Source: Candidatus Pacearchaeota archaeon
Lineage (GTDB): Archaea; Nanobdellota; Nanobdellia; Pacearchaeales; GW2011-AR1
Direction: 5' to 3'
Length of the DNA: 14,749 bases
Assembly: GCA_050124795.1 (NCBI GenBank)
Contig: JASFEO010000020.1
Coordinates: forward strand, 1-14,749
Under the pieces are notes generated by a model. That model did no database searches. It was not told where the DNA came from and saw only the letters and a program-made list of their open reading frames with translations. The translations under genes and the position numbers were made by a program. Below are positions 373-3,707 of the stretch, one piece after another (position 1 is the stretch's first letter; every line of letters starts with the position of its first letter).

Positions 373-651
373 TTCATTATGGCCAAACTGGATAACTAAA
401 TCAATTTTCTTTTTTAATTTTTCACTTAAAACAGGAGTGTCGCATGCGCCAAAGCAGGTGTCAAGCCAGATTAGAAATTCTGAATTTGTTTTTTCTTCGA
501 GATAATCCGCAATTGCGGTTGCATAAATTTTAAGCCCATCTGGAAATTGCAATAAAACAAGTTTTGCTTTTTCTTTTTTTATTTGAGAAATTATTTTTTC
601 AAAATCAAAATTATATTTTTCATTTAATTCTTTAATTGAAATATTTTTCAT
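355..651 (-). CDS. dph2: Diphthamide synthesis protein Dph2-like, N-terminal domain only (98 aa)
   Basis: Motifs LLQFPDGLK, DTCFGACD and DLVIQFGH are typical of the first domain of Dph1/Dph2. TATA-like AATATAAA (673-680, minus) starts 29 nt upstream of the ATG. Confidence 0.85.
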   Translation of the reverse strand: MKNISIKELNEKYNFDFEKIISQIKKEKAKLVLLQFPDGLKIYATAIADYLEEKTNSEFLIWLDTCFGACDTPVLSEKLKKKIDLVIQFGHNELMPNY

Positions 652-702
652 AAATAAAAAAGTAAAAATAAGTTTATATTTGTTGTCTTTTTTTCAGAGT
701 GA

Positions 703-716
703 GAAAGCCTTAAAAA
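703..716 (+). promoter_or_regulatory. BRE + TATA promoter for the putative triple-hairpin RNA
   Basis: GAAAG (703-707) followed by CTTAAAAA (709-716). The same octamer lies at 12710-12717, 29 nt before the 12739 ATG. This spacing predicts a transcription start near 736-738. Confidence 0.6.
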
Positions 717-735
717 CCAATTAAACATATACTGA

Positions 736-811
736 ATGTCTAACTTCGGTTAGACGTCTGCTTAACTTCGGTTAAGCATTTGGAGAGATTAATCTTCGGA
801 TTTTTCTCTCC
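736..811 (+). ncRNA. Putative small RNA of three tandem C(UUCG)G hairpins, family unknown
   Basis: ATGTCTAAC-TTCG-GTTAGACGT (736-757), TGCTTAAC-TTCG-GTTAAGCA (759-778), GGAGAGA-TT-AATC-TTCG-GATT-TT-TCTCTCC (782-811). Promoter upstream and T-rich tract (812-822) downstream. Confidence 0.65.
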
Positions 812-897
812 TTTATATTTTTATATTGCAATCAGGAGAATCCTGTGATAAACTTCTTATGCCAGTAATTTTTTCATAGATATTTAATCATCTTAAC

Positions 898-905
898 CTT
901 TAAAA
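898..905 (+). promoter_or_regulatory. TATA box of aIF5B gene (probably leaderless)
   Basis: CTTTAAAA starts 30 nt upstream of ATG 928, matching the spacing at other genes in the window. Confidence 0.6.
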
Positions 906-927
906 ATAAATATATTCTCTAAAATAT

Positions 928-2682
928 ATGACAAACACAACCAATAATCGCATCAGGCAACCAATAGTAACGGTCTGCGGACATGTTGATCATGGAAAGA
1001 CTTCTATCTTAGATTGTATAAGAAGCAGTTGCGTTCAGGGAGGAGAAGCAGGAGGAATCACGCAAAAAATTTCTTTTACAACTTATCCAATTGAAGAATT
1101 AAAAAAATCATGCCCTTTAATTGAAGCTTCAGGAATAAAATTACAGATTCCGGGATTTTTATTTATTGATACACCTGGCCATGCAGCTTTTACGAATCTG
1201 CGAAAACGAGGAGGAAGCTTGGCAGACCTGGCAGTTTTAGTTATTGATATTAATGAAGGAATAAAACCCCAGACTGCGGAAGTAATTGAAATTTTAAAAT
1301 TAAATAAAACTCCTTTTATGATTGCATTAAATAAAATCGACAATATTTCTGGCTGGAGAAAACAGGATGAATCATTGCCCAAGAGCATTTCAATGCAGTC
1401 TCAAAATGTGAAACAAATTTTTGATGAAAGATATTTAACTTTAATAGGTTCATTAAATTCTTATGGTTTTGACGCAGACCTTTATTTTAATATAAATGAT
1501 TTTTCAAAAAAAATTGCACTTGTCCCGGTTTCAGCAAAAACAAAAGAGGGAGTTCCTGAATTAATCATGATGCTTTGCGGACTTAGTGAAAAATATTTGC
1601 ACAACAGATTAACTCTTGGTGAAAAAGCAAAAGGAGTAATTTTAGAAATAAAAAAAGACAAGGCAATTAATTATGCAGAGAGCATTCTTTACGACGGAGA
1701 ATTAAAAAAAACTGACGAAATCGCAGTTGCAAGTTTAACAAGAGAACCCATAGTTACAAAGATAAGAACATTGGAGGAGATTGAAAGCTTGTGCGCGAGA
1801 TTCAAACCCAAGGAAAAAGTAACTGCTTCAACTGGTCTGAAAATGCAATTAATTGAGAAAGCAAATATTTTGCCTGGCATGCCGTTTGTTTTGTATGAAG
1901 ATAATCTGGAAGAAATAAAAAAAGAATTTTCAAAAGAAATTTCAGGGGCAGTGCAGACTTCTAAGCAGGGAATTATTGCGAAGGCAGATTCTTTGGGAAG
2001 CCTGGAAGCGCTTTTGGTTTTGTTAAAGCAGAATAATATTTCAGTTTTAAAAGCAGGGATTGGCAATATAAATAAAACAGATGTAATTTCAGCAAAAGCA
2101 AATTTAGAAATTAATGAACTTGATTCAATTATCGTTGGGTTTAATGTTAGTGAGGATGAAGAAGTAAGAGAAATGCAAGAAAGAAAAATCAAAATCATAA
2201 CTGACGATGTAGTTTACAAATTAATTGAAAATTTGTCAGCTTACCGTCGTGAAAAACAAATAGAGATTGAAAAAAATCGCCTTATGAAACTTTCGACAAT
2301 TGCAAAGTTAAAGATTCTCCCCCAGTATGTTTTCAGAAACACAAAACCTGCGATTTTTGGTGTGAAAGTTGACGGAGGAAAATTGATTTCAAATTTAAAT
2401 TTCATTAATGAGGCAGGAGAGAAAATCGGCAGAGTAAAAAATATTCAGTCTGAAAATAAATCTGTTACTGAATCAACTGAAGGAATGGAAGTTGCAATCT
2501 CAATTCCAGGTGTTAATTTTGAGAGGCAATTAAAAAATTCAGAGATACTTTATTCAGACATGAGTACAACGCAATTTAGAACTTTTAAAAAAAATAAGGA
2601 TTTGTTATCCAGTAAAGAAATAAAAATTTTACAGGAGATTGCAGAAATTAAAAGAAAAAAAGATAATGATTGGGGGCGATAG
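928..2682 (+). CDS. infB: Translation initiation factor aIF5B (IF-2), 584 aa
   Basis: IRQPIVTVCGHVDHGKT (G1), GEAGGITQ, DTPGH (G3), NKID (G4), KADSLGSLEAL and C-terminal VFRNTKPAIFGV. Archaeal length, no intein visible. Confidence 0.97.
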   Translation: MTNTTNNRIRQPIVTVCGHVDHGKTSILDCIRSSCVQGGEAGGITQKISFTTYPIEELKKSCPLIEASGIKLQIPGFLFIDTPGHAAFTNLRKRGGSLADLAVLVIDINEGIKPQTAEVIEILKLNKTPFMIALNKIDNISGWRKQDESLPKSISMQSQNVKQIFDERYLTLIGSLNSYGFDADLYFNINDFSKKIALVPVSAKTKEGVPELIMMLCGLSEKYLHNRLTLGEKAKGVILEIKKDKAINYAESILYDGELKKTDEIAVASLTREPIVTKIRTLEEIESLCARFKPKEKVTASTGLKMQLIEKANILPGMPFVLYEDNLEEIKKEFSKEISGAVQTSKQGIIAKADSLGSLEALLVLLKQNNISVLKAGIGNINKTDVISAKANLEINELDSIIVGFNVSEDEEVREMQERKIKIITDDVVYKLIENLSAYRREKQIEIEKNRLMKLSTIAKLKILPQYVFRNTKPAIFGVKVDGGKLISNLNFINEAGEKIGRVKNIQSENKSVTESTEGMEVAISIPGVNFERQLKNSEILYSDMSTTQFRTFKKNKDLLSSKEIKILQEIAEIKRKKDNDWGR

Positions 2683-3632: not shown

Positions 3633-3707
3633 TGAGGCTGCTAGGATTTGAACCTAGGACCCCTGCCTTATCAGAGCAGTGCTCTGGCCAGACTGAGCTA
3701 CAGCCTC
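3633..3707 (-). tRNA. tRNA-Ile (anticodon GAT), 75 nt, no intron, CCA not encoded
   Basis: Cloverleaf GAGGCTG TA GCTC AGTCTGGCCA GAGC A CTGCT CT-GAT-AA GGCAG GGGTC CTAGG TTCAAAT CCTAG CAGCCTC A. TATA CTTATAAA at 3732-3739 (minus). Confidence 0.97.

Follow-up and report, generated by a model that had tools for sequence, protein, structure and literature searches.

What is the array of three tandem hairpins that lies between the divergent genes for Dph2 and aIF5B in this archaeal genome: a gene in its own right, part of the aIF5B leader, or a repeat? The array is located near the start of the window, by which we mean the whole stretch of DNA that was analysed (14,749 nucleotides). The genome, G000, has 1.06 Mb in 38 contigs, with 32% G+C and an estimated completeness of 90%. 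A previous reading of the window made from the letters alone (the sequence-only reading) had labelled its source as DPANN, which fits small AT-rich archaeal genomes. Window positions 703 to 829 very probably constitute a real structured RNA gene, as judged from sequence comparison. Our main reading is that of an independent non-coding RNA gene on the + strand, with a product of about 76 to 90 nt that would act as a multivalent protein-binding platform, and we hold this statement as a whole at a probability of about 40%. The features of the locus are listed below.

355-651, - strand: N-terminal piece of a split Dph2, the divergent upstream neighbour (PF01866, positions 1-59 of 302)
703-717, + strand: promoter of the small RNA (BRE/TATA-like), with the TATA word at 710-717 behind an A-rich BRE
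736-757, + strand: hairpin 1, 9 bp including one U-G pair, TTCG loop at 745-748 (sequence and fold)
759-778, + strand: hairpin 2, 8 bp, C-UUCG-G with the loop at 767-770 (sequence and fold)
782-811, + strand: hairpin 3 (terminal), outer stem of 7 bp, UU/UU internal loop, inner stem of 4 bp, C-UUCG-G with the loop at 795-798
812-829, + strand: T-rich tail, likely termination zone and 3' end of the RNA
896-910, + strand: TATA-like promoter of aIF5B, separate from the RNA gene (from sequence; a similar word is kept in G014 and G010)
928-2682, + strand: aIF5B gene, the downstream neighbour (Pfam GTP_EFTU, IF-2, GTP_EFTU_D4)

Sequence reading and folding showed that positions 736-811 consist of three adjacent hairpins, each capped by C-UUCG-G, and reproduced exactly the stems, linkers and loops that had been described for them. 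The linkers have 1 and 3 nt, a C-G pair closes every loop, and the three stems differ from one another in sequence. Hairpin 3 has a purine-rich 5' arm and a pyrimidine-rich 3' arm. The minimum free energy of the element was -35.7 kcal/mol, compared with -14.6 ± 2.8 kcal/mol in 200 dinucleotide shuffles (z = -7.4), and none of the 200 shuffles folded as well. No ORF of at least 40 aa was found across the element. Hairpins of the C-UUCG-G type with a stem of at least 5 bp are scarce in the 1.06-Mb genome; five were listed, two of them in the element, the 4-bp inner stem of hairpin 3 being below this cut-off. Hairpin 2 looks like a duplicate of hairpin 1, and it is the one that is missing from the two-hairpin members of the family described below.

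The opposite strand gave a weaker fold (-29.8 kcal/mol). The same preference was found throughout the family, as the sense strand folded better in 34 of 34 members and G-U pairs made up 121 of the 799 predicted pairs. A strand-symmetric DNA palindrome was ruled out by this bias and by the G-U pairs, and the + strand preference that had been read from the window is borne out in all of these members.

The promoter proposed ahead of the first stem and the T-rich tract proposed behind the third were both seen. The TATA word of the window is located 26 nt ahead of the first paired base of hairpin 1. In the family, a TATA word with an A-rich BRE ahead of it is found at a distance of 26 to 30 nt (mode 28) in 30 of 36 members; in the remaining six, TATA-like words are present that escaped the regular expression used. 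The BRE/TATA word of the window is nearly identical to that of tRNA-Gln in the same genome and has a similar spacing, and the transcript is therefore predicted to begin with the first base of hairpin 1 (736 ± 2).

At the 3' end, hairpin 3 is a stable hairpin directly before a T-rich run. This is the layout of a terminator, and transcription is predicted to end in the T-rich tract past hairpin 3. Such an intrinsic-terminator-like layout of hairpin and T-run is an unusual picture for archaea. Hairpin 3 probably doubles as a terminator hairpin, by analogy, because many of the 29 tRNA genes in this genome (for example on contigs C1, C2, C16, C17 and C18) have the same layout behind them, a hairpin within a few bases and then a T-rich run. 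A T-rich tail was present in every homologue, where it often opens with AC and holds a short UUAUAUUC-like word. The 7-mers of this word were only 1.3 to 1.6 times enriched in the 60 nt after 544 long ORFs, an enrichment that is not telling, and the word was rejected as a general terminator motif.

Homologues were sought at several levels. Among 60 relatives, blastn picked up a three-hairpin element in G005 and one with two hairpins in G025. The two belong to other genera and lie in other gene contexts; their stems are different, their loops are the same, and each comes with a TATA word of its own. A pattern of three CTTCGG words was found in 41 of 401 genomes of the same family, compared with four control matches counted. 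Thirty of these pattern loci were read, which gave 23 clear hairpin arrays behind a TATA word, one ambiguous case and six chance or coding repeats. A covariance model, R1, was then available from 11 three-hairpin members; with a match cut-off of E up to 0.01 it matched 36 of 151 relatives. Within the archaeal family the matches came from 28 of 90 genomes in many genera, and 17 family genomes reached 33 bits or more. Several genomes have two or three copies, and the paralogues of G005 are strongly divergent from each other.

Outside the family, R1 matched 7 of 60 genomes, and of the four that were read only G050, from another family of the order, looks related. At its locus L060 (about 1395-1660, + strand), a structured region spans about 200 nt and includes five UUCG-capped helices; it is preceded by a TATA word and comes shortly after a tRNA gene. 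Rfam gave no match for this region, which may be distantly related to the RNA family. A stricter triple-loop pattern was scanned over all prokaryote species. At least 80 loci were scored, mostly from bacteria; six reached E ≤ 0.01 and none exceeded 34 bits, and three R1 matches that were read, among the matches listed, were plain direct repeats. The same stricter pattern gave 77 loci in viral contigs, with a best R1 score of 31 bits. Of the seven that were read, five were direct or coding repeats, and two, L218 and the three-hairpin locus L201, were something other than plain repeats. L201 (1729-1805, + strand, on an IMG/VR viral contig with 56% G+C) has three perfect tandem hairpins, each with C-UUCG-G, and is probably an independent invention. 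Another IMG/VR viral locus, L244 (4707-4783, - strand), has an R1 score and a G+C content equal to those of L201.

The members share one plan: simple UUCG hairpins, from one to at least six in number, come first, then a terminal hairpin rich in purines, and a T-rich tail closes the array. Members have between 2 and at least 7 UUCG hairpins; in 3 of 34 members the terminal hairpin has no UUCG. The simplest ones consist of a simple hairpin with a RAC-UUCG-GUY top, a terminal hairpin with a purine 5' arm and a pyrimidine 3' arm, and the tail; the window type is this plan with a second simple hairpin inserted. In one genus, the two-hairpin unit is repeated two or three times in tandem. G413 has seven UUCG hairpins, and in G378 a three-hairpin gene precedes a second gene, which consists of seven simple UUCG hairpins, further stems and a terminal hairpin. 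Of 86 loops, 79 were C-UUCG-G and four U-UUCG-G, that is, 83 of 86 were UUCG, a constancy that is partly built in since most members were retrieved by a pattern or model demanding UUCG loops. The linkers have 0 to 3 nt across members, and the tail is AT-rich and variable between genera.

A Y-shaped form was found in four genomes, with a 7-bp closing stem around two UUCG hairpins and a tail that opens with AC. We count it as a tentative relative because its R1 score is only 21 to 28 bits. The Y-shaped loci are L062, L064, L065, L066 and L070. In three genomes the form lies within about 100 nt of a tRNA-Leu(UAA) gene, and in the fourth (L065) the distance is about 900 nt. A staphylococcal-nuclease-like gene is located within about 1 kb of it at L062, L064 and L070.

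Covariation was evaluated on 17 three-hairpin members, a set of mutually related sequences of which 11 had built the model and whose alignment was fitted to it; in this set 98.0% of the cells pair, compared with 85.5 ± 1.0% after shuffling, and none of 500 shuffles was as high. Changes on both sides were found in 11 of 18 pairs, where the shuffled mean was 6.4 and none of the 500 shuffles reached 11. Controls with slid partners gave just 19 to 54% pairing. On a MAFFT alignment that had not been fitted to the model, RNAalifold predicted 18 pairs, 9 of which had compensatory changes. In hairpin 1, all six modelled pairs stay paired in the 17 homologues and four of them change on both sides. In hairpin 2, 97.8% of the cells are paired and five of eight pairs change on both sides. 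G-U pairs dominate the inner stem of hairpin 3 in the homologues; its outer stem was out of register in the MAFFT alignments and was judged from single-sequence folds, not from column counts. It had been noted in the window that the stems differ yet keep pairing, and the homologous stems bear this out with compensatory changes, both for the pairs changed on both sides and beyond all 500 shuffles. Judged from these alignments, the structure is conserved through compensatory change, and the family is clearly under selection for structure.

The flanking genes had been named as dph2 and aIF5B. The latter was right; the former is only the N-terminal piece of a split Dph2, matching no more than profile positions 1-59 of 302. 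The remaining Dph2 is a separate gene on contig C2 (52134-52712, + strand; profile positions 63-273). Such a short N-terminal Dph2 ORF (about 85 to 160 aa; about 98 aa in the window) is the rule in 79 matching genomes of the order, and a full-length Dph2 frame of 329 to 356 aa was found in seven genomes. The Dph2 piece and aIF5B diverge and neither ends at the element; the hairpins therefore are not the terminator of a flanking gene. The aIF5B gene looks leaderless, with its TATA about 30 nt before the ATG. That aIF5B has its own TATA, so that the element is not simply its leader, had already been proposed, and the proposal holds, as this promoter persists in G014 and G010, where the RNA is missing.

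The order Dph2 piece, RNA and aIF5B is kept in eight loci of four genera, three of them besides the genus of the window. The Dph2-piece loci of 29 relatives were then surveyed irrespective of the presence of the RNA. A family member adjoins the Dph2 piece in 3 of the 29 (G006, G064 and the second copy in G005), and a different UUCG-bearing small RNA is found there in four. In two, G014 and G010, the Dph2 piece and aIF5B are adjacent with a short spacer and no RNA. The spacer has 52 nt in G014, whose Dph2 piece, with 73% identity, is the closest to that of the window among the relatives searched. The remaining loci of the 29 have other neighbours, and no hairpin RNA was seen in them. The expectation that the hairpins persist at this site in close relatives was thus borne out in part: four genera retain the RNA between the Dph2 piece and aIF5B, and G014 and G010 lack it there. 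Because the survey mixes RNA-bearing and RNA-less sites, the RNA is common among near relatives yet gained and lost. No member was found in five family genomes (87 to 95% complete), even with lax filters. Because of these five genomes, and because G014 and G010 are empty at the same site, the RNA is dispensable.

The different small RNA beside the Dph2 piece occurs in G020, G061, G062 (two tandem copies) and G078. It is equipped with a TATA word of its own, and its long purine/pyrimidine closing stem surrounds an internal loop, which is conserved, and a UUCG hairpin similar to the inner part of hairpin 3 of the window. Its loci are L288 (about 1866-2052, + strand), L284 (about 1857-1960, + strand), and L278 and L291 on the reverse strand. 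It had no match in Rfam at E up to 0.1.

Other members of the family flank unrelated genes, or sit a few hundred nt from tRNA-Ser or tRNA-Leu genes. The downstream gene is co-oriented in 28 of 39 cases and convergent in 11. No protein neighbour common to all loci was found beyond local gene order; the recurring ones (the Dph2 piece, aIF5B, a DsbD-like membrane protein, a thioredoxin-like protein, and a nuclease near the Y-shaped forms) reflect local gene order only, and a conserved protein neighbour was given up as a lead. In its own genome the element is single-copy: blastn of the element found only itself and three chance matches of 14 to 19 nt, and R1 had one match in G000. The dispersed genomic copies that would have pointed to a repeat were also missing from the hairpin list, and a REP/MITE-like dispersed repeat was rejected with one copy in the genome. 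Since the genomic contexts differ and the element is single-copy in this genome, the RNA element does not depend on the genes beside it and is neither a leader nor a dispersed repeat. With homologues in other contexts, a TATA word at a fixed distance and a single copy, the proposed stand-alone and promoter-driven small-RNA gene is supported by comparison, its transcript being predicted. Of the public sequencing runs, a wetland DNA metagenome, perhaps the source of the assembly, is the only one that contains this DNA.

We compared the element with known RNAs. With Rfam 15 (4227 models) at the gathering score, only tRNA-Ile at 3633-3707 passed in the window, and nothing passed at the element. 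In window 640-940 with E up to 10, only chance-level matches to SNORD20 (E = 1) and MIR162_1 (E = 2.6) were obtained. The SNORD20 match is on the - strand at 833-899 (18.8 bits, chance level), opposite the aIF5B promoter region, and has C-like and D-like words. In 12 homologous loci Rfam found only tRNAs and one SRP RNA, and no family for the element. The SRP-RNA-like match (Bacteria_small_SRP, 40.5 bits) is at L066 2999-3085 (+ strand) in G002, about 1.4 kb past the Y-shaped element. The claim that no known family has this layout therefore agrees with the Rfam check, which gave no match for the element in the window or in the 12 homologous loci. A search of the openly available full-text literature found no description of such an RNA. 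The family matches no described family; it is a structured small RNA with a modular hairpin-array design in archaea.

Several identities were rejected one by one. The genome has copies elsewhere, above the cut-offs, of SRP RNA (contig C1, 98 bits), RNase P RNA (C17, 103 bits) and 5S rRNA (C7, 62 bits), and these identities were discarded for the element. ARAGORN called only the tRNA-Ile in the window and nothing at the element in 41 homologous loci; with 4-nt loops throughout and no 7-nt anticodon or T loop, a tRNA or tRNA-like identity was rejected as well. C/D box sRNAs carry a C box (RUGAUGA) and a D box (CUGA) at their two ends, and both boxes are missing from 736-829 on the + strand. No CRISPR-like array turned up when the assembly was scanned, crudely, for the spacing of 20-mers, and a CRISPR-related solitary repeat was rejected. 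Type III antitoxin RNAs (ToxI-like) are similar to the element in having tandem structural modules of varying number; in contrast to them, the modules here are not near-identical direct repeats and no conserved toxin gene is adjacent.

How such an RNA would work has to be weighed against four other explanations. It is unlikely, in our estimate, that the RNA is a real and independent small RNA whose hairpins only stabilise and terminate it, with antisense base pairing through the linkers, the 3' tail or an opened C/U arm of hairpin 3. Many bacterial small RNAs are indeed built of a seed, hairpins and a terminator, and a short word recurs in the tails after the AC step; yet the linkers have just 0 to 3 nt, and the tail is plain AT-rich sequence that differs between genera. 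The C/U-rich 3' arm of hairpin 3 is like an anti-Shine-Dalgarno mimic, but a stable stem keeps it locked, and no conserved GGAGG is seen in the purine arm. Moreover, aIF5B looks leaderless, so that targeting of Shine-Dalgarno sequences may matter little, and base pairing would give the variable number of hairpins no role. A device acting in cis, either a promoter-plus-terminator unit or a terminator stack that insulates or tunes the neighbours (for example as a leader or attenuator of aIF5B), seems to us quite unlikely. The element is found in the same direction directly 5' of aIF5B in eight loci of four genera, and the co-oriented downstream genes (28 of 39) are in line with such a role. However, 11 of the 39 members are convergent with the next gene, members stand beside unrelated genes, and the TATA of aIF5B persists in G014 and G010 without the RNA. 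Hairpin 3 and its T-rich tail resemble the tRNA-gene trailers of this genome and share the layout of intrinsic-type terminators, for which covariation and G-U pairs would also be expected. At the window, though, the Dph2 piece is divergent and no upstream gene reads in. Unlike in intrinsic-type terminators, the hairpins directly follow a dedicated promoter with nothing else in the predicted transcript, and the extra upstream hairpins are conserved in their own right. A conserved strong promoter exactly one TATA-to-start distance from hairpin 1 would be hard to explain for a pure terminator.

That the element has no RNA function, being either a hairpin repeat (neutral or selfish) of REP/MITE type or the promoter and terminator left from a lost tRNA gene, is very unlikely in our view. 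REP and MITE repeats are likewise stable, palindromic intergenic hairpins, sometimes in tandem. The distribution is patchy, with two or three copies in some genomes, expansion of tandem arrays and loss from the same site in close relatives, and the promoter and trailer resemble those of tRNA genes. The element differs from such repeats in being single-copy in this genome and in having its own promoter, strand-specific G-U pairs and compensatory evolution, with stems that change while pairing is kept across many genera and a position that is kept in four. The paralogues in G005 are too different to come from recent transposition, and by eye no terminal inverted repeats or target duplications were noticed between the occupied site in the window and the empty G014 site. 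We give hardly any chance to a strongly diverged known archaeal class, whether an H/ACA guide RNA of one to three hairpins or a processed, CCA-tagged tRNA-like minihelix. Archaeal H/ACA RNAs do have one to three tandem hairpins and, like the element, their own promoter. AC, often ACC or ACU, directly follows the terminal stem in about half of the members, and the four Y-shaped relatives have a 7-bp closing stem followed by AC near tRNA-Leu genes. However, in archaeal H/ACA sRNAs the upper stem contains a kink-turn or K-loop and the lower stem is directly followed by an ACA box on its 3' side, and by inspection neither was present: there is no tandem G-A, and the tails start with U, or with AC and then C/U. 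A pseudouridylation pocket is also missing, since the folds of 34 members have no internal loop of target size, only one of at most 2x2 or 1x1 in hairpin 3, and the 2x2 UU/UU loop is itself missing from several members. The 4-nt loops leave no anticodon or T loop, ARAGORN made no call at the element, and the Rfam search with E up to 10 gave only the two chance-level matches.

We therefore return to the protein-binding platform. In the predicted fold the RNA is nearly all double-stranded; what is constant are the loops and the hairpin tops, and what varies is the number of hairpins. A multivalent platform for protein is favoured because there is little single-stranded sequence, the loops and tops are constant, and the hairpin number drifts. 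The RNA would then most likely act in trans, as a multivalent platform of high stability, be it a sponge, a decoy or a scaffold. The binding protein would recognise the hairpin tops, and hairpin 3 would double as the terminator. Protein binding as the mechanism of the small RNA is put forward here tentatively, by analogy.

The protein-sponge reading comes from a design shared with sponge RNAs such as CsrB. Like the element, CsrB and RsmZ of bacteria have a stand-alone gene, a variable number of hairpins, one loop motif, drifting stems and a terminator hairpin. The element has the variable number of hairpins with a shared loop that characterises these sponges, which is a likeness in architecture only. 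Their loops are GGA and those of the element are UUCG, the element is hosted by an archaeon, and no relation in sequence or in Rfam was found. It is a possible, though doubtful, view that the element is an archaeal counterpart of the bacterial sponge RNAs, titrating or scaffolding a protein that recognises the C-UUCG-G tops. The number of binding modules (2 to at least 7) would then change fast in evolution, and gains and losses of the gene would separate the genera.

CsrB and RsmZ need the partner CsrA in the same organisms. CsrA does not track the element RNA: it was found only on the phage-like contig C8 and in 3 of 90 family relatives, compared with 28 of 90 for the RNA, and was rejected as the partner. 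Contig C8 has 50270 bp and 28% G+C, and its first and last 130 or so bases are nearly identical, with an offset of 3 nt. Because its ends are nearly identical, the contig is circular or terminally redundant. The starts of its ORFs read as phage-type genes (a YqaJ-like exonuclease and a cell-wall amidase), and its two CsrA homologues score 59.5 and 43.6 bits. Probably, then, a phage genome was binned together with that of the archaeon. A search of this 90%-complete genome for RNase III and for dsRBD proteins found none, and they too were rejected as partners.

Two observations weaken the protein-sponge model, namely that the constancy of the loops is partly built in by the search and that UUCG caps occur in another small RNA. 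Since the different small RNA at the same locus in four relatives also has UUCG, the caps may be a habit of the lineage in capping helices rather than a recognition signal.

To our knowledge, very few non-coding RNAs are known in uncultured small-genome archaea beyond the universal ones, and we know of no such archaea that are genetically tractable as yet. Conserved RNAs are among the few leads to regulation in these organisms. The family described here is easy to recognise and unusual in its build, with hairpins only, one invariant loop and a number of hairpins that varies between genera. Even if its function is modest, the covariance model can be used to annotate hundreds of metagenome-assembled genomes. 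The UUCG tetraloop is usually seen as a passive structural cap. If a protein binds the hairpin tops, this would be a natural case of specific UUCG tetraloop recognition and the first sponge- or scaffold-type RNA system proposed for archaea. The sponge reading, if true, would point to an undiscovered system of post-transcriptional control in small-genome (DPANN-like) archaea.
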